A stretch of 64,000 nucleotides of DNA from an uncultured Leptospirales bacterium (lineage in GTDB: Bacteria > Spirochaetota > UBA4802 > UBA5550). The DNA lies in contig CAZBFP010000002.1 of assembly GCA_964491265.1 (NCBI GenBank), positions 134,288 to 198,287 of the forward strand, written 5' to 3'. The notes beneath the pieces are model-generated. The model was not told where the DNA came from and made no database searches. It saw nothing but the letters and a program-made list of their open reading frames with translations. Shown here one piece after another: positions 9,348 through 43,997 of this stretch (position 1 is the first letter of the stretch; each line of letters begins with the position of its first letter). Both the position numbers and the translations under genes were made by a program.

Positions 9348-9619
9348 ATTATCACCTTTTTATGGAAATGAGAACCTGTTTACGGATTCCTGTAAATTAA
9401 AATTTAAATTATCGGTTAATTATCAGGGGGAAATTATTTACTTCCATGCCGGATGTGTTTCAATTACCCCTTATTGAAAAATATTCCCGGATTACATCTT
9501 TTTTAGTTACCGGAATTATTTCACCAGAAGGCCTCCCGCTATCCGATGTAAAAACGAAGCAGTAAATATTTGACTTTCACGGGAAAATCATTACCATTAA
9601 TAAAAAAAAGAGGGTTATA

Positions 9620-11071
9620 ATGAATAAAAGAAATATAATGGCTGTAATTTTCGCAGTATTGACTACAGGTGCCTGTTCAGGCAGTAATTACAATATTCCA
9701 ATATTAAATGCACAGGACTCAGCATTTAAAAATAAACTGCCTATCCCGCCTGTTCTTAAGCCGGTTGAAGAAAAAAATATATCCAGATACACTCTCCAGG
9801 TACAACAGGGGAACTATGAATTTATCAAAGGGGAAATGGTATACACCTATGGCTACAATGGCCCGATACTGGGGCCGACAATAAAAGTAAAGAGAGGCCA
9901 GAAGGTAAGTATTGAGGTTCAAAATTTATTGAGAGAATTCACAACAGTTCACTGGCATGGCATGCTTGTTCCGGGAGATATGGATGGAGGGCCGCATCAG
10001 GTAATAAGTCCAGGAAAAAAATGGACAGCGTCTTTTACTGTAAATCAACCAGCTGCTACTGCATGGTATCATCCCCATGGCCTTGGAACAACAGCCCGGC
10101 AGGTGTACATGGGTCTGGCTGGTTTGTTTATTGTTGAGGATGAAATTTCTGATAAACTGAATATTCCCCGGGAGTATGGAGTAAATGATATACCATTAAT
10201 TGTGCAGGATAAAAGACTGTCGGAGGAAGGAGTGCCGCTCTACTTAACCGGCATGAGAGATATAATGGTTGGGATGCTCGGCAATACAATACTGGTAAAT
10301 GGAGTGATTACACCGCACCTTACTGTTACAAAAAATAAATACAGGCTGAGAATTCTCAATGGATCAAATGCACGGGTGTATAATTTTTCATTTAATGACA
10401 ATAGTCCCTTTTTTATAATTGCAACGGACGGTGGTTTTCTTGAAAAACCTGTTAAAAGAAAGAATATAATTCTTTCTCCGGGTGAACGTATTGAAATAAT
10501 AGCAGATTTCAGTAAATACAGTGACGGGAGAAATGTTAAACTGGTTTCAGGGAATATTGATATTATGGAATTCAGAGTTAATGGCATAGAAAAGGAAACA
10601 GCAATAATTCCTGAAAGACTTGCGAACATTAATGGATATGATCCATCTTCATCAAAAAGGGCCAGACTTTTTCAGCTTGAGGGGATGGGGCATATGGTTG
10701 CTATAAACGGCAGGAAGATGAATATTAACCGCATTGACGAATATATGAATTATAATGATACTGAAATCTGGACAATTACAAGTTCTACAGCTATGCACGG
10801 CAGAGGCATGATGGGCGGAGGTATGATGGGCAGAATGGGTCCGGATGTTTTACATAATTTTCATGCTCACGGAGTTCACTTTTTAATACTCAGTCGTAAC
10901 GGAATCCCTCCCGGAGACCATGAAAAGGGGTGGAAAGATACAGTTCTTCTAAATGAAAATGAAGAGGTAAAAGTTATAACCAGATTTCTTTACAGGGGGA
11001 TTTTCATGTATCATTGCCATATTCTTGAACATGAAGATAATGGCATGATGGGGCAGTTCAAAGTAAAGTAA
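9620..11071 (+). CDS. Multicopper oxidase, CueO-like lipoprotein with Met-rich insert
   Basis: Lipobox LTTGAC. HWHG, HPHG and HCHILEHEDNGMMG copper-ligand motifs. Met-rich stretch MHGRGMMGGGMMGRMG. Confidence 0.8.
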   Translation: MNKRNIMAVIFAVLTTGACSGSNYNIPILNAQDSAFKNKLPIPPVLKPVEEKNISRYTLQVQQGNYEFIKGEMVYTYGYNGPILGPTIKVKRGQKVSIEVQNLLREFTTVHWHGMLVPGDMDGGPHQVISPGKKWTASFTVNQPAATAWYHPHGLGTTARQVYMGLAGLFIVEDEISDKLNIPREYGVNDIPLIVQDKRLSEEGVPLYLTGMRDIMVGMLGNTILVNGVITPHLTVTKNKYRLRILNGSNARVYNFSFNDNSPFFIIATDGGFLEKPVKRKNIILSPGERIEIIADFSKYSDGRNVKLVSGNIDIMEFRVNGIEKETAIIPERLANINGYDPSSSKRARLFQLEGMGHMVAINGRKMNINRIDEYMNYNDTEIWTITSSTAMHGRGMMGGGMMGRMGPDVLHNFHAHGVHFLILSRNGIPPGDHEKGWKDTVLLNENEEVKVITRFLYRGIFMYHCHILEHEDNGMMGQFKVK

Positions 11072-20484: not shown

Positions 20485-20520
20485 ATAACCCCGCTTGTTA
20501 GTGGGGTTATTTTATTATTT
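20485..20520 (+). terminator. Rho-independent terminator after the malic enzyme gene
   Basis: Stem AACCCC...GGGGTT followed by TTTATTATTT. Confidence 0.6.
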
Positions 20521-20813
20521 TATCAGCAGTTATTATTCTTGTTGTGTAAGAATTTATTGTTATTTGAATTTTTCTTTTTAAATTACGGATGTAATAATTT
20601 TTACCGGTCTTTTCAAAATCTTCTAACTGTGTTTCTTTTATTGTCTGAAAGATATATTTCTCAATCTCTTCATTACTCATCTGAATAGAAAGTTTTTTTC
20701 TTATCCCAATACCATAAACCATCAAGGGAGCCCTTTTGCAGGAAATCAAATATCTCTTCATTGTTTGATACGAGGTTGTATAGTTCTTCCTTCAGGTAAT
20801 GCGATTCATCCAT
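20507..20813 (-). pseudogene. Degraded PAS-domain gene remnant
   Basis: Good RBS (AAGGAG) and ATG at 20813. The 47 codons MDESHYLKEELYNLVSNNEEIFDFLQKGSLDGLWYWDKKKTFYSDE match the PAS N-terminal consensus, then a TAA stop. A +1 frame continues for 60 low-complexity codons past an A7 run. Confidence 0.45.
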
Positions 20814-20897: not shown

Positions 20898-21827
20898 CTA
20901 AAAACCTAATCTGGAGCCCCGTTCGTGTATGAGACTTATGTATTTTTCTTTCATTTTTTCAGAGAGGAAACTGATCTGAATTATATCCTCCCAGGATTTC
21001 CATGAATTAAATAGGATTTCCAGTTCCCGTGAAATAATGGCTTCATTCAGATTGAGTCTTTCCTTTGCGAAATATTCGGTAAAAATTTTACCGCTTAAAT
21101 TATTTTTTTTACCCATAATTGGAAGGGCGATTTCCTCTTTCGCGTTCTTAAGGGCTATGGTTGTATTGAGCAGGTCATAGGCGGGTGACAGTTCTGTTTT
21201 TTCATCTCTGGTTATGAGTGAAAAATTTTTCAGATGCATATCCTCGTTCCCTGTAAGAAAATTGAAAAGGGTAAGCCGGAAGAGCTTGATTTTTTCAATA
21301 GCCGGGAAGGTGCAGAATCTGCTGATTATATCTGCCAGCTTCTCCATGGTATAATCATATTTAGTATCACGGCTCTCCCCGGCAAGCTGGGCAAAGTCCT
21401 CCAGGGAGTATTTTTTGTTTCTCCCGTATCTGTCGAAGCGTTTAATAAAATATGTAAATCGTCCATCCTTTGAATAGACCATGCCATTGAAGGGAACCTC
21501 TATTCCGGAAAGTGAAGCAAGCTTCATAGTCAGTGATTCATTTGCCGGGAGCTCAGGGTAAAGAGTATTTTCAGGTTTTAATATATATGTGCCCCCCTGG
21601 TCTGCCAGTTCAAACACTTTAGCGGCTCTGTTGAACCGGGCGCTCAGCTTGGGCTGTACCCCCTGGATCGACATTTTATCAGCTCTCATGGCTGCTTCAT
21701 GAACCTGCTCCTCCTGGGTGAAGGGGAGGTCGTTAAGTGTGTCCAGATTTTTTGAGAGCAGGTTAAGCCCTCCTTTTGAGTATTTCTCCTCGCCGCAGTT
21801 CTGGTATGTTATGGGGCAGATATTCAT
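20898..21827 (-). CDS. HipA-like Ser/Thr kinase toxin lacking the N-subdomain (HipT-like)
   Basis: SIQGVQPKLS nucleotide-binding loop and NEDMHLKNFSL catalytic motif (DxHxKNxS) of HipA_C. 309 aa. 4-bp overlap with the upstream HipS-like ORF. Confidence 0.8.
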   Translation of the reverse strand: MNICPITYQNCGEEKYSKGGLNLLSKNLDTLNDLPFTQEEQVHEAAMRADKMSIQGVQPKLSARFNRAAKVFELADQGGTYILKPENTLYPELPANESLTMKLASLSGIEVPFNGMVYSKDGRFTYFIKRFDRYGRNKKYSLEDFAQLAGESRDTKYDYTMEKLADIISRFCTFPAIEKIKLFRLTLFNFLTGNEDMHLKNFSLITRDEKTELSPAYDLLNTTIALKNAKEEIALPIMGKKNNLSGKIFTEYFAKERLNLNEAIISRELEILFNSWKSWEDIIQISFLSEKMKEKYISLIHERGSRLGF

Positions 21828-22138
21828 TCAGCACCCCTTATTGTAACAGAACCGACAAGGTCGCTCCCTGTGAGAAGAAGTATTGAAAAATAGTCATTGC
21901 GGTCAATTTTGGATTTACGCAGAAGAGCCTCAAGCTGAACACCTTCAGGGAGGAGCCCTTCAAAAAAGGGGGGGAACCTGTCAAATTCGTATTCCTTCCG
22001 GGAAAGGGGGAGGGTAAGTGAAACCGGGGGGCCTGTATATTCATCTGCATAATTAAATGAGTATTTTTTCCCCTGCTCATATTCAATAAGATCGCCGGCA
22101 TAGATAGCAAAGTTAAAAACCTCAGCTTTACGCATCAT
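21824..22138 (-). CDS. HipA N-terminal subdomain protein (HipS-like)
   Basis: 104 aa matching the HipA_N coupling domain, with PVSLTLPL and PFFEGLLPEG motifs. Encoded as a separate ORF between the HTH gene and the kinase gene, as in HipBST. Confidence 0.75.
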   Translation of the reverse strand: MMRKAEVFNFAIYAGDLIEYEQGKKYSFNYADEYTGPPVSLTLPLSRKEYEFDRFPPFFEGLLPEGVQLEALLRKSKIDRNDYFSILLLTGSDLVGSVTIRGAE

Positions 22139-22358
22139 TATTCTCCATGAGCTTTATTAAAGGGTTCTTAAGCTCAACTTTTATGTTTAAAACTGATAAT
22201 ATTTTAAGAATGGAATTAATCTGAACCGTCTCTTTCCCTTTTTCTACGTCAAAGACAACAGTTTTCCCCACACCGGCCATGAGAGCTAATTCCTTTTGAG
22301 TGAGGCCGCTCTTTTTTCTGTGAAAGCGTACTGTTTCTCCAATTTCTGATGGTGTCAT
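22128..22358 (-). CDS. XRE-family HTH protein (HipB-like)
   Basis: 76 aa with helix-turn-helix LTQKELALMAGVGKTVVFDVEKG. First gene of the three-gene operon. Confidence 0.75.
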   Translation of the reverse strand: MTPSEIGETVRFHRKKSGLTQKELALMAGVGKTVVFDVEKGKETVQINSILKILSVLNIKVELKNPLIKLMENNDA

Positions 22359-22430
22359 ATTTCCTGCTGTAACAGTAAAAATTAATGATTTTATATATAA
22401 TGCATCATCAGGAGTATAAAGTCAATTAAA

Positions 22431-22522
22431 TTTACTGCTTTGGCAGTAAATTTTGTGTAAAAAGAATCAATTTTAACATATTTCAGATGAATTCAGTCTA
22501 TTTTACTGCTATAGCGGTAAAA
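22431..22522. promoter_or_regulatory. Two operator-like palindromes upstream of the hipB-like gene
   Basis: Seen directly. TTTACTGCTTTGGCAGTAAA at 22431-22450 is perfect. TTTTACTGCTATAGCGGTAAAA at 22501-22522 has one mismatch. Their centres are 71 bp apart. Confidence 0.55.
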
Positions 22523-22653
22523 TATTTAGTTTTTAATTATTCTTTTGGATTACTGAAGGTAATTAATCTGGCTATTCAAAATCAGCAGCAGTTGAGATTT
22601 GAACTAATTATTCTTGACTATAGAAATAGAAATAATTATATTAATTATATGAG

Positions 22654-22884
22654 GTGGAACTTATGGAATATGTGTTCAAGGTCATTGTTGAAGAATGCGA
22701 AGAGGGCGGCTTTTATGCAGAATGTCCAACCTTCCAGGGATGCCACGCTGAGGCAGATTCTTATGAAGAAGTAATGTCGGAAATAAAGGCATTGGTTGCC
22801 GGTTTTGTAGATGAATATAAAAAAAATAATGAACCACTCCCTGTTGACAACTATTCGGTAGCAACAGTTAGAATTGCAGTATGA
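22654..22884 (+). CDS. HicB-like antitoxin family protein (UPF0150), solo
   Basis: 76 aa, YVFKVIVEECEEGGFYAECPTFQGCHAEADSYEEVMSEIKALV matches the HicB/UPF0150 N-domain. No adjacent HicA ORF. Confidence 0.65.
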   Translation: MELMEYVFKVIVEECEEGGFYAECPTFQGCHAEADSYEEVMSEIKALVAGFVDEYKKNNEPLPVDNYSVATVRIAV

Positions 22885-22933: not shown

Positions 22934-23602
22934 ATGATAACCCTAATTAATAAAGCATCGAACCTATACCGATACAATTATATTTTTTACCCTCTTTTGA
23001 AAAAAATAAGATCTATTATTTATTTATTCAGTCTAATAACTGAGAGCAGATTCTCCGGGGATGATGAATCCCTGATTGCTCTGTTTTTAGGCGGCGACAG
23101 GCGAGCCTTTGATGCACTTGTAATGAGGCATATGGATATGGTTTTTAATCTCTGTTATAATATTACAGGCGATTATGATGAGGCGAATGACTCTGCCCAG
23201 GATGTTTTTATTAGTGTTTATAAGAATCTGGGTAAATTCGAAGGGAGGTCGGCTTTTTCCACCTGGCTTTATAGAATCGCGGTTAATACATGCAGAAACA
23301 GGCTTTCATCTGCATATAAAAAACGGACAGTCAATATTGGCGATAATGAAGGATTTCTGCAGGCAGGTTCCGGAGGTAATCCGGCTGATATTTTTGAGAT
23401 GGAGGAGGGTGAGAGAGCTGTAAGGGACGGGATTGCCCTGCTGCCGGAGGAGGAGAGGATTCTGATTATTCTCCGGGATATTGAGGGGCGGAGTTACCAA
23501 GAGATTGCGGGGATTACAGATTTGAAAGAGGGGACTGTAAAGTCCAGAATATCCAGAGGGCGGCACAGGCTCAGGGAATACCTGAAGGGGGTGATGTTAT
23601 GA
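22934..23602 (+). CDS. ECF-type RNA polymerase sigma factor
   Basis: Sigma-70 region 2 (DSAQDVFISVYKNLGKFEGRSAFSTWLYRIAVN) and region 4 (ILRDIEGRSYQEIAG). The true start is probably downstream of 22934. Confidence 0.75.
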   Translation: MITLINKASNLYRYNYIFYPLLKKIRSIIYLFSLITESRFSGDDESLIALFLGGDRRAFDALVMRHMDMVFNLCYNITGDYDEANDSAQDVFISVYKNLGKFEGRSAFSTWLYRIAVNTCRNRLSSAYKKRTVNIGDNEGFLQAGSGGNPADIFEMEEGERAVRDGIALLPEEERILIILRDIEGRSYQEIAGITDLKEGTVKSRISRGRHRLREYLKGVML

Positions 23603-24522
23603 ATTGCAAAGATTCGCGGGAAATGATTGAAGCATATATTGATAACGGCATAGACCCTCTTGAGGATAAGGTTCTTGCTGAGCATATCAGCTCCTGTGAA
23701 GAATGCCGCGGCGAGCTTGAGATTTTTTTGAAATACAGTGATTCAATTAAGTCGCTTAAGCCGGTTAAAGCGCCTGATAATTTTATCCTTAATCTTAACA
23801 GAAGAATAGAGAGTGAAACCGGCGGCCTCTCAATCGTGGAACGGGGGATCGATTTTATTCTTATGATTCCCAGGATGCGCTTTTCAATGGAAGCTGCGGG
23901 AATGGCTGCTCTTGTTCTTATATTGCTTATTGTTTACAAGCCTTTCACTGTTGTGGAGAAAAAATATTCTGAACTTGAGGTTTCTGTTTCCACTTCTGAG
24001 GCTCAGAAAGAGGGGATGAAGCAGGATCAGCCGGCTCAGTTTAAACCGGATGAAAGGGGACCGGGAGTATCTGCTAAAAAGAGTGAAAAGTATATTCTAT
24101 CTTCTTCAGATCAGGAAAAGGACACAGGCGGGCCAGCAGGCGCTGCAAAGGTAGAGGAGCAGATAGATGAGCAGAGGAGTGAGGCGGATACCTTACAGCA
24201 GAGAGGTGAGGAGAGGTTGAGTATCTCCGGCGCTTCTGATACGGCGAAAATGGAAAGGTCTGAATCTGCAGTGAACAGGTCTAAAAGCGTTTATGCGGAT
24301 ATACGTCAGGATAGCCCTGAGGATCTTTTCGCCAAACACAAAGCTGCGGTGATTAAAAAGGAGAGGCTGGAGGATGATAAAACCGGATATATTTTGCGGA
24401 TTTCATCTGACAGGTATCCCCTTCTTTTAAAAGAACTGGAAGTTAATTATGATGTTGAAGAGATTAGTATTTCCCGTGAAAATGGCGTGACTACTGCTGA
24501 ACTGCTGATTGGAAAAAAATAA
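23599..24522 (+). CDS. Anti-sigma factor, zf-HC2 type, single-pass membrane
   Basis: ATGA overlap with the sigma factor gene. HISSCEECRGEL zinc motif, one TM (AAGMAALVLILLIVY), charged extracytoplasmic tail. Confidence 0.7.
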   Translation: MNCKDSREMIEAYIDNGIDPLEDKVLAEHISSCEECRGELEIFLKYSDSIKSLKPVKAPDNFILNLNRRIESETGGLSIVERGIDFILMIPRMRFSMEAAGMAALVLILLIVYKPFTVVEKKYSELEVSVSTSEAQKEGMKQDQPAQFKPDERGPGVSAKKSEKYILSSSDQEKDTGGPAGAAKVEEQIDEQRSEADTLQQRGEERLSISGASDTAKMERSESAVNRSKSVYADIRQDSPEDLFAKHKAAVIKKERLEDDKTGYILRISSDRYPLLLKELEVNYDVEEISISRENGVTTAELLIGKK

Positions 24523-24590
24523 ATTCTGCAAAAAAAATGAGAACTTAAATCCTTCTGTTTCTGTCAAAAGAGAAAAACAGGAGGATCCCT

Positions 24591-25712
24591 ATGAAAAAGA
24601 AAATTTCAGTAATTGTTTTATCCTTTTTACTTGCAGGAACTGTTTCAGCTTATTCAAACCGGTCCCGGGTAATGGTTCCGAAAATTCAGCTGGCCATACT
24701 TCTTGATACAAGCAGCAGCATGGACGGTCTTATTAATCAGGCAAAGTCGCAGCTCTGGAAGATTGTGAATGAAATGGCCCTTGCCAAAAAAGGGGGGTTA
24801 AGGCCAGAGCTTGAGGTTGCCATCTATGAATATGGGAACAATAATATCCCCGCAGGGGAAGGTTATATACGCATGGTGCTCCCCTTTACCGGAGATCTGG
24901 ACAGTATATCATCAGCGCTTTTTAATCTTACCACTAACGGGGGGGACGAATACTGCGGTCTGGTTATAGGTTCAGCGGTGCGCAACCTCACCTGGGACGG
25001 GTATGAGGATAACCTCAAAATTATTTTTATTGCCGGGAATGAGCCCTTTAATCAGGGTGAGGCAGGTTATGTCAATGCTGTGAAACAGGCTGTTTCCAGG
25101 GGTATTATTGTCAACACAATATATTGCGGTGATAGAAGAACCGGGATTAATACCTTCTGGAAGCATGGCGCTGATCTTGCCGGCGGGAGATATATGAATA
25201 TTGATCAGGATATAATCCCTGTAACAATAATGGCTCCCCAGGATGCAGAGATAGCCCGGCTTGGCCATGAGCTGAATAAAACCTATCTTGCCTACGGGAA
25301 AAGCGGGGCTGCTAAAAGAAAAGAGCAGGAGAAGCAGGACAGTAATGCCATGGCAATGTCTGAAGAGGTGGCAGTGGAGAGGTCTGTTTCAAAGGCTTCG
25401 GGGCATTACAGCAATTCAGGGTGGGATCTTGTTGACGCTGTTTCCGACGGAGCTGTTAAGATTGGCGAGCTTGAGGATGAAGAACTCCCCGGGGAAATGA
25501 AAAAGATGAGTAAAGCTGAACGTGAGAAGTATATAAAAGATATGACCAGGAAGAGAGAGGAGATAAAGGAGAAAATAAACAGGCTCAATGTTGAGAGAAG
25601 AGTTTATGTTGAAAAGAAAATTAAAGAAGCCGGGTCGGAGAATACCCTCGATGCTGCAGTTATCGGGGCTGTAAGGGAATCGGCAAAGAAGAAGGGTTTT
25701 ACCTTTAAGTAG
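24591..25712 (+). CDS. Secreted von Willebrand factor type A (VWA) domain protein
   Basis: Signal peptide, MIDAS motif LLDTSSSMDG, C-terminal charged coiled region. Confidence 0.7.
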   Translation: MKKKISVIVLSFLLAGTVSAYSNRSRVMVPKIQLAILLDTSSSMDGLINQAKSQLWKIVNEMALAKKGGLRPELEVAIYEYGNNNIPAGEGYIRMVLPFTGDLDSISSALFNLTTNGGDEYCGLVIGSAVRNLTWDGYEDNLKIIFIAGNEPFNQGEAGYVNAVKQAVSRGIIVNTIYCGDRRTGINTFWKHGADLAGGRYMNIDQDIIPVTIMAPQDAEIARLGHELNKTYLAYGKSGAAKRKEQEKQDSNAMAMSEEVAVERSVSKASGHYSNSGWDLVDAVSDGAVKIGELEDEELPGEMKKMSKAEREKYIKDMTRKREEIKEKINRLNVERRVYVEKKIKEAGSENTLDAAVIGAVRESAKKKGFTFK

Positions 25713-43055: not shown

Positions 43056-43997
43056 CTATTTATTTACATTGCCGCATTGAATTTTAAACATATCACCTGC
43101 ACCGTCATATTTAAGGGGCCGGTATTTCCCGCCGGTATAGTCCTCCTGAAATGTTATCTGCGGGTAGACCCAGCATTCACCCTTGCTGTCCTTTACTGCA
43201 GCAGCAGCACGGATATAGCGGTGGAGAATGGCATTGGTAACATTGTGACGGCGTACCATCCATTCTGAGTCGATAATTACCAGTCGGATTATATCTTTAT
43301 TAGCCTTAATGCGTCCGGTTTTCCAGTCATTTGAGTTTTTAATAGCCTTTATCATATCAGCTTCGGTCTTTTTATTCTTCATTTTCGCCTGAGGCATGCG
43401 CGCCTTATCAGCAGCACCTGAGTCTGCACCGCTTATCATTGCAGTCATCATTGTACCGTAGGCAGCGTAGTTGTTCCCTTCAATAGTGAAGTCCCCTTTT
43501 GCAACTTCCTGATAATTGAATTTTACCGATACTGTAATGCTGTAAGTACCTCCAGGGAGTGTGCGGAAAAGATCAGCAATTTTAATGGGGCCTTCACATG
43601 CGGCAGGGTTTGGGTATTTTTTATAAATAACATCATCTTTAACATAGGCGCTCATCTTCTGCGGGTCGGGGAGAATATCAAAAGCAAAATGTTTTCTACC
43701 CAGTGCAGCCTCACCGGCTGTTCCGTTTGTGTAGATTGTATCATTGTCTTCAACATCAACAACGATTTCTACTGTTCCTTTCTTCATTGAGGGGTTCCCA
43801 GCAAGCCCTTTAAATGTGTCAGGTAGAGATGCCAGACCGTAAATGGTATCTCCCGATTTAAAGCTCCCTGTAAGATTTGCCGGTTTTGCCGGGTCAATTG
43901 GAGATTTGGAAAATACAATTTTACCGGTACTTTGTGCCTGTAAATTAATTGCGGATGTGATAATAAGTATGCATAAAAAAATTAGAAATTTTCTCAT
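43056..43997 (-). CDS. Secreted hypothetical protein
   Basis: Signal peptide MRKFLIFLCILIITSAINLQA with AGGAGA RBS. The ORF-track start at 44138 is an unsupported extension. No known domain. Confidence 0.5.
   Translation of the reverse strand: MRKFLIFLCILIITSAINLQAQSTGKIVFSKSPIDPAKPANLTGSFKSGDTIYGLASLPDTFKGLAGNPSMKKGTVEIVVDVEDNDTIYTNGTAGEAALGRKHFAFDILPDPQKMSAYVKDDVIYKKYPNPAACEGPIKIADLFRTLPGGTYSITVSVKFNYQEVAKGDFTIEGNNYAAYGTMMTAMISGADSGAADKARMPQAKMKNKKTEADMIKAIKNSNDWKTGRIKANKDIIRLVIIDSEWMVRRHNVTNAILHRYIRAAAAVKDSKGECWVYPQITFQEDYTGGKYRPLKYDGAGDMFKIQCGNVNK

Follow-up and report, generated by a model that had tools for sequence, protein, structure and literature searches.

Results

The hipBST operon and its surroundings

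The window, by which we mean the whole 64-kb stretch of DNA that was analysed, comes from a Spirochaetota bacterium and carries on its minus strand three co-oriented, overlapping genes in the order that defines HipBST systems. hipB (22128..22358) encodes a predicted Xre-type HTH repressor of 76 aa that belongs to the Legionella subclade of HipB proteins. hipS (21824..22138) encodes a protein of 103 or 104 aa corresponding to N-subdomain 1 of HipA, the putative antitoxin, and hipT (20898..21827) a HipA-core Ser/Thr kinase of 309 aa, the putative toxin. The overlap is 11 bp between hipB and hipS and 4 bp (ATGA) between hipS and hipT. It is probable that hipS starts at the second ATG (22135), giving 103 aa and a first overlap of 8 bp, because both the metagenome gene calls (103 aa) and the alignment with Legionella HipS favour this codon. 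An earlier note on this DNA had described a tripartite HipB/HipS/HipT operon with these reading frames and overlaps, and Pfam domains found in all three proteins bear this out: HTH_3 in HipB (5.3e-10), Couple_hipA in HipS (8.7e-23, residues 12-100, i.e. N-subdomain 1 alone) and HipA_C in HipT (2.4e-44), where N-subdomain 1 is missing. In NCBIfam, HipB scores just over the cutoff of TIGR03070 couple_hipB (74.3 bits, cutoff 71.65).

The kinase core of HipT is intact, as the earlier note had stated, with catalytic, Mg-binding and P-loop Ser residues conserved on alignment to HipT of Legionella pneumophila (Lp). The motifs MSIQGVQPK and GNEDMHLKN begin at residues 52 and 193, respectively, and S53, Q55, D76, Q77, R130, R133, D144, R153, D196, H198, K200, N201 and D218 align with functional Lp residues. 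More specifically, S53 corresponds to the autophosphorylated Lp S54, and D196 and D218 to Lp D197 and D219, which contact ATP and Mg2+ and were mutated in the Lp work. Lp Q56, the HipS-interface residues D77, Q78 and R154, and R131 and R134, which contact the phosphoserine, all have identical residues at the corresponding positions of the window protein. In HipB the segment GVGKT..D.EKGK is kept in an alignment of seven sequences, with G29, G31, K32, T33, D37, E39 and K42 invariant; such a conserved segment fits the conserved operator described below.

The location is chromosomal. SelB, whose named relatives are all Spirochaetota MAGs, is encoded nearby, as are a TRAP transporter with malic enzyme, chemotaxis proteins and an ECF sigma/anti-sigma pair. 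In a comparison made for an empty site, 13/13 contigs with an identical malic enzyme showed the same gene order, and the gene remnants and accessory patch of the earlier note thus found no support. GC dips occur in the AT-rich flanks only. The divergent gene that had been called HicB-like gave only sub-threshold matches. The HicB-like and DUF3781 ORFs had no match in NCBIfam, the 46-aa ORF and the 95-aa intergenic ORF had none in Pfam even at E up to 10, and PADLOC gave generic HTH and weak candidate-family matches only. Carriage by a mobile element was considered and rejected: tblastn against the phage collection gave no match and against plasmids just five records, the sole close one (57% identity) being a 451-kb replicon of Legionella adelaidensis.

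Three palindromes upstream of hipB

Three palindromes on the minus strand form a regular array in front of hipB. The distance from the end of O1 (22361..22378; coding strand TTACTGTTACAGCAGGAA) to the hipB ATG is 2 nt, and a Shine-Dalgarno-like AGGA is present in the right half of this site. O2 (22432..22449; TTACTGCCAAAGCAGTAA), a perfect palindrome, follows 71 bp farther upstream, and O3 (22503..22520; TTACCGCTATAGCAGTAA) is found 71 bp upstream of O2. Taken as 20-nt palindromes on the plus strand, 22431-22450 is perfect, 22502-22521 has 1 mismatch and 22360-22379 has 2. The start-to-start spacing is exactly 71 and 71 bp, consisting of an 18-nt core and a 53-bp gap. Chance would produce 0.24-0.26 matches in the whole 64-kb window, where 3 were found, and the observed count was reached in 0/100 shuffles. 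At no more than one mismatch the motif occurs nowhere else in the 64-kb window; a looser 20-nt pattern gave 4 matches, including a site with 3 mismatches at 43192. The earlier note had seen two palindromes with centres 71 bp apart. Both are real, and the third copy, the one adjoining the hipB ATG (22360-22379), had been missed. The palindromes had also rightly been taken for operator candidates unlike the operator of E. coli hipBA, TATCC-N8-GGATA, a sequence that was not found near the locus.

Tandem duplication of a 71-bp unit was rejected as an account of the array: Tandem Repeats Finder reported no 71-bp array, and four consecutive 71-nt units, when aligned, had no convincing similarity outside the palindromes. 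An RNA hairpin at O1 that would mask the ribosome-binding site was rejected as well, the fold (-4.1 kcal/mol, z -0.22) being not significant.

The best candidate for the hipBST promoter in the window is located on the minus strand in the gap between O2 and O1 (22397..22425), with TTGACT at 22425-22420, 17 nt, and CATTAT at 22402-22397. The promoter consensus scan was weak, with 11 found against 9 expected, and is not significant alone. In the window, as in its closest relatives, the loci L103, L146, L057 and L001, O2 is followed at a distance of 5-6 nt by a -35-like TTGACx or TTGCTT.

Comparison with the published Legionella operators

Lin et al. 2023 (mBio; PMC10653801) reported three copies of TTACYG-N6-CRGTAA with 53-bp gaps upstream of Legionella hipBST, to which HipB binds in EMSA; the sites are kept in 28 Legionella species and missing from the E. 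coli hipBST promoter. We used the EMSA oligonucleotides from the table of that paper (O1 TTACTGCTATAACAGTAA, O2 TTACCGCCATAACAGTAA, O3 TTACCGTGATAACAGTAA) for comparison. O1-O3 of the window match Lp O1-O3, with 71/71 spacing in both, and position 5 of window O3 is C, as in Legionella O2 and O3. The Legionella-type array was also confirmed on L. adelaidensis DNA. The proposal of a new operator type has to be withdrawn, since the same 18-nt motif, the same copy number and the same 71-bp period had already been published and tested by EMSA for Legionella hipBST (PMC10653801).

The two arrays differ in their distance from hipB. In Legionella the first bases of the sites are at -42, -113 and -184, which is 22 bp farther from hipB than in all the non-Legionella loci (about -20, -91 and -162). 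In Legionella, 24 nt separate O1 from the hipB start, and the site overlaps the promoter predicted there, whereas window O1, being 22 bp nearer, abuts the start codon, so the geometry of promoter and operators is not identical in the two. The right half of O1 differs too, with the Shine-Dalgarno-like CAGGAA in the window and CAGTAA in Legionella.

Affiliation of the proteins

All three proteins are closest to HipBST of L. pneumophila (lpg2368-lpg2370; PDB 7VKB, 7VKC, 7WCF, 8EZR, 8EZS, 8EZT; Zhen et al. 2022, Lin et al. 2023). HipT matches HipT(Lp) best (8ezr/7vkb, E 2.5e-111, 57% identity, full length), HipS matches HipS(Lp) (7vkb_B, E 2e-34, 63% identity), and the best PDB match of HipB is HipB(Lp) (8ezt, E 3.7e-22, 50% identity). 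The HipS chains of Lp, H. influenzae and E. coli (Ec) are among the matches to window HipS. The chains of HipBST from E. coli O127 (7ab3-5) score far less, with 1.1e-22 for HipT, 1.1e-11 for HipS and 7e-3 for HipB. The earlier statement that HipA is split exactly as in E. coli O127 therefore holds for the tripartite architecture and not for the affiliation, for which the L. pneumophila subclade is the closest.

The likeness to the L. pneumophila system extends to gene order and sizes (76, 102-104 and about 310 aa), to a single P-loop serine in an S-(I/V)-Q context, to HipS without the plug tryptophan, and to three TTACYG-N6-CRGTAA operators with a 71-bp period; the host, here a Spirochaetota bacterium, differs. 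At the plug position window HipS reads PEGVQLE (V66/Q67) and Lp HipS PEGIMLE (I65/M66), so the HipS interface differs in detail. HipS without the plug tryptophan, a single P-loop serine and a target other than TrpS or GltX have been described as features of the Lp subclade (PMC10653801).

With E. coli O127:H6 HipBST (PDB 7AB3-7AB5; Vang Nielsen et al. 2019, Baerentsen et al. 2023) the locus shares the division of HipA into HipS and HipT; there HipS is the antitoxin and HipB the repressor. That system has features of its own: two P-loop serines, named Ser57 and Ser59 in the eLife paper on E. coli HipBST, a HipS W65 plug, a HipB of 107 aa and TrpS as target, without Lp-type operators. The P-loop of the window kinase is MSIQG, and no Trp is found in HipS at the aligned W65 position. 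As to the P-loop serines, whose conservation the earlier note had proposed to check, the single serine S53 is kept, and there are not two serines as in E. coli O127. E. coli K-12 HipBA has the kinase fold and the catalytic residues in common with the window, and there also an Xre-type HipB acts as autorepressor on multiple palindromic operators. It differs in its one-piece HipA (440 aa) neutralised by HipB, in its TATCC-N8-GGATA operators and in its GltX target; neither a one-chain HipA of ~440 aa nor this operator is found at the window locus. We are confident in assigning the locus to the Legionella type (HipBST-Lp subclade) as a chromosomal type II three-component toxin-antitoxin module.

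Conservation across loci

The same hipB-hipS-hipT arrangement was found in 19 intact loci of the genome collection from several phyla, in records labelled Ignavibacteria, many Flavobacterium, a Cyanobacteriota MAG and an uncultured bacterium. The split is present also in 64 loci among the metagenome matches listed and in L. adelaidensis. Nineteen contigs, each assembled independently, carry an identical HipT protein among the same neighbouring genes.

Three recognisable sites are present in 17/19 of the intact genome loci and two sites in the other 2/19, spaced 70-72 bp apart, and O1 has the same position in all 19. The gap sequences between the sites are unrelated among these loci. The right half of O1 is CAGGAA, CGGGAA or AAGGAA, i.e. 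Shine-Dalgarno-like, in the window and two relatives, and CGGTAA in Flavobacterium. Lineages with the array include loci labelled Ignavibacteria, Flavobacterium and Cyanobacteriota, the Spirochaetota host of the window, and Legionella. A metagenome scan for two sites at the 71-bp-type spacing gave at least 120 loci. Among the 120 matches listed, 82 have a HipB homologue (E < 1e-10), directly adjacent in 81 of these, and 55 have a third site.

Discussion

Our results place a HipBST module of the Legionella type in a Spirochaetota chromosome. By analogy with the Legionella orthologues, HipT would be a growth-arresting Ser/Thr kinase, and HipS, not HipB, would neutralise it by taking the place of HipA N-subdomain 1 near the active site and ejecting the P-loop. 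HipB dimers on O1-O3 would repress the operon, and HipT or the HipS-HipT pair may join HipB on the DNA. This step of HipB-HipT contact is uncertain, because the two Legionella papers disagree on it, as they do on toxicity in E. coli (PMC10653801, PMC9325769). Autophosphorylation at the single P-loop serine would, by the same analogy, not switch the toxin off. The kinase substrate is probably neither TrpS nor GltX, since Legionella is not saved from HipT(Lp) by either. For toxicity, neutralisation and DNA binding alike, the argument is carried over from orthologues that are 50-63% identical.

If the promoter lies in the O2-O1 gap, O2 would flank the -35 element and O1 would take up the short 5' leader, along with the DNA from which the ribosome-binding site is transcribed. 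With the promoter between the two sites, bound HipB could repress by occlusion at O2 or as a roadblock at O1. A higher-order complex of HipB, HipT, HipS and DNA may underlie the strict 71-72 bp period.

Other explanations of the locus have to be weighed against this one. One of them, which the earlier note had named among the findings that would overturn it, is that a frameshift or sequencing error cut an ordinary hipA in two and so gave hipS and hipT. This could be read from their 4-bp ATGA overlap and from the joint resemblance of the two ORFs to HipA, with weak matches to full-length HipA. It is nearly inconceivable given the comparative data, for the split is seen in the genome loci, in the metagenome loci and in Legionella, the two proteins are separate chains in crystal structures, and the independently assembled contigs carry one and the same HipT. 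Since the split recurs in ~100 related loci, comparison of their sequences leads us to regard it as ancestral and not as a frameshift. The palindromes, for their part, could be intrinsic terminators or generic repeats and not HipB operators. A scan marks O2 and O3 as resembling terminators, each a hairpin with a T-run after it, their RNA folds reach -11.7 and -11.2 kcal/mol (z -6.4 and -4.0), and similar palindromes without hipB are seen on viral contigs. However, in every related locus the sites hold a fixed position relative to the hipB start and a 71-72 bp spacing with unrelated gaps between them, and direct adjacency to hipB in most of the metagenome matches listed (81 of 120) also argues against a generic repeat. 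A terminator at O1, inside the operon leader, would abolish expression, and the O1 fold itself is indistinct (z -0.22). As the published EMSA on the Legionella sites speaks against it as well, we hold this explanation to be extremely improbable, and the three palindromes are best described as HipB operators.

Function like that of E. coli O127 HipBST, with HipT phosphorylating TrpS, a tryptophan plug in HipS and two tuning serines, would agree with the shared three-gene architecture and Pfam domains and with the detectable homology of HipT and HipS to 7ab3-5. Yet all three proteins match their Lp counterparts far better than those of Ec; the P-loop reads S-I-Q, while the 7ab3 and 7ab4 chains between them carry serine at both positions; V66/Q67 stand where W65 would be, and HipB has 76 aa, not 107. 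The Ec promoter has no operators of the Lp type, and in Legionella TrpS gives no rescue from HipT(Lp) (PMC10653801). Such a mode of action is very unlikely here. Domestication or decay of the module, in which the genes are intact and HipT is no longer a toxin, e.g. a regulatory kinase, seems a little-favoured explanation. The Legionella system is unusually well conserved across the genus, and one group saw no toxicity in E. coli; remnants of hipT also exist, as seen in the Flavobacterium loci L020 and L021. Against this stand the intact catalytic residues, operators and overlapping-gene organisation of the window locus and the kinase-dependent growth inhibition in Legionella found in both studies (PMC10653801, PMC9325769). 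A toxin-antitoxin module of the Legionella type accounts for the locus better than any of these.

Pairs of similar palindromes occur also apart from hipBST. About 38 of the 120 metagenome matches listed have no hipB, and at least 12 of these hipB-less loci are inside dense tRNA gene arrays on AT-rich contigs, flanked in nearly every case by duplicated tRNA-Asp and tRNA-Glu genes. In IMG/VR, 17 viral contigs were found to have paired palindromes, in ~9 of them at the same tRNA-array position, and hipBST was found on none (0/17). One of the viral contigs, IMGVR_UViG_3300029288_000055, is 362,763 bp long, a length equal to that of the metagenome contig behind locus L034. The viral palindromes have the 71-72 bp spacing of the hipBST operators and resemble them also at positions where this is not forced, with a central YTATAR and a 3' A-run, and each is followed by AAAGTGCCATATATGATACT. 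In four loci an ORF of ~200 aa comes after the palindromes; its C-terminal Xre HTH is 32% identical to window HipB over 56 residues, and its N-terminus looks GIY-YIG-like by eye, for which Pfam gave no confirmation. Of two further stand-alone arrays, one is found upstream of a hicA-hicB pair and the other upstream of a phd-parE pair. The tRNA-array loci may all descend from one phage family and were therefore counted as one event.

Operator pairs of the HipB(Lp) type might accordingly not be confined to hipBST promoters, and phages and HipBST might be coupled at the DNA level; we consider this a long shot. If it were true, with the sites bound by host HipB or by a phage HipB-like protein, it would imply titration of the repressor or HipB-controlled expression of phage tRNAs, and possibly a lead on the target of the HipT(Lp) clade, with the window locus an ordinary example of the cellular side. 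Of all the leads from this analysis, the site pairs in viral tRNA arrays alone have the potential to become something new, and they are separate from the window locus.

What the window carries is a further example of a subclade that is already known and characterised in structure, with operators of the published type. By analogy with the characterised system, its genes can be named hipB, hipS and hipT and the three palindromes labelled as HipB operators. Two points go beyond the 2023 paper, in which the operators were described only in Legionella. One is that outside Legionella the shifted array puts O1 over the DNA of the 5' leader and the ribosome-binding site. The other is that operator sequence, copy number and the 71-72 bp period are kept across phyla. 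Operators and period that are kept while the gaps between them vary freely suggest that a structural constraint governs how HipB complexes sit on the promoter.

Chromosomal surroundings of the hipBST locus

The surroundings of the hipBST locus in the window are an ordinary chromosomal context. After a small divergent HicB-like gene, the plus strand encodes a 222-aa ECF sigma factor, a 307-aa zf-HC2 anti-sigma protein and a further protein of 373 aa (22934–25712). On the opposite side of the locus lies a TRAP transporter (DctPQM) with an NAD-malic enzyme; genes for a sensor kinase and a sigma-54 activator come before these.

The HicB-like gene (22654–22884, plus strand, called as 73 aa from 22663) gives only sub-threshold matches to UPF0150 and HicB_lk_antitox, scoring about 20 bits where the cutoffs are 27, and it resembles TTHA1756 weakly (2yzt, E 5.7e-4). 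It has neither a hicA partner nor a DNA-binding domain. A promoter-like TTGACT-17-TATATT is present at 22614–22642. Between operator O3 and the gene, an exact 11-nt direct repeat, TAATTATTCTT, occurs at 22534–22544 and 22605–22615, 71 bp apart; this may be chance in AT-rich DNA.

A 46-aa ORF (20813–20673) and a DUF3781 gene (20761/20722–20507) overlap on the minus strand within window positions 20507–20813. The Pfam match of the latter covers profile positions 17–72, and the 46-aa ORF matches no family at E values up to 10. They may be two small genes or a remnant broken by a frameshift. The arrangement is identical on every contig with the locus.

Variation among relatives and other operator-like arrays

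Two Flavobacterium genomes carry only hipT fragments, corresponding to query residues 41–261 (L020, 4034–4687) and 102–307 (L021, 3972–4621). No intact hipB or hipS was found upstream of either, and they are apparently decayed copies of the HipBST system. In another relative, whose HipT is close to that of the window (L120, E 2e-132), four operator-like sites lie upstream of hipB (about 9350–9600, minus strand), as compared to three in the window.

Stand-alone operator-like arrays were also seen upstream of a hicA/hicB pair (L144, array 221–381, genes 483–1087) and of a phd/parE-family pair (L069, array 9755–9844, genes 9979–10534). hipB is absent from the examined stretches of both. The window array likewise has its HicB-like gene, on the array's far side.

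Palindromes in tRNA gene arrays

On some viral or AT-rich contigs, two or three TTACYG-N6-CRGTAA palindromes spaced 70–72 bp apart occur within conserved arrays of tRNA genes, nearly always flanked by duplicated tRNA-Asp and tRNA-Glu genes. Such loci occur among the metagenome matches listed (L034, L036, L040, L041, L053, L060, L090, L095, L106, L116, L117 and L142) and in IMG/VR (L152, L156, L161–L165, L167 and L168); L162 comes from a viral contig of 362,763 bp. None of these metagenome and IMG/VR loci has hipBST near the palindromes, and AAAGTGCCATATATGATACT follows each palindrome.

At four loci on viral contigs an ORF of about 200 aa directly follows the paired palindromes (L162, 2688–3290; L034, 8170–8772; L152, 3869–4465, all plus strand; L168, 5573–6169, minus strand). 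Inspection by eye shows a GIY-YIG-like motif, IYGL...YKYVGKS, at the N-terminus of this ORF; Pfam does not recognize it. An Xre HTH domain (HTH_3, 4e-9) forms the C-terminus and shares 32% identity over 56 residues with the window HipB.
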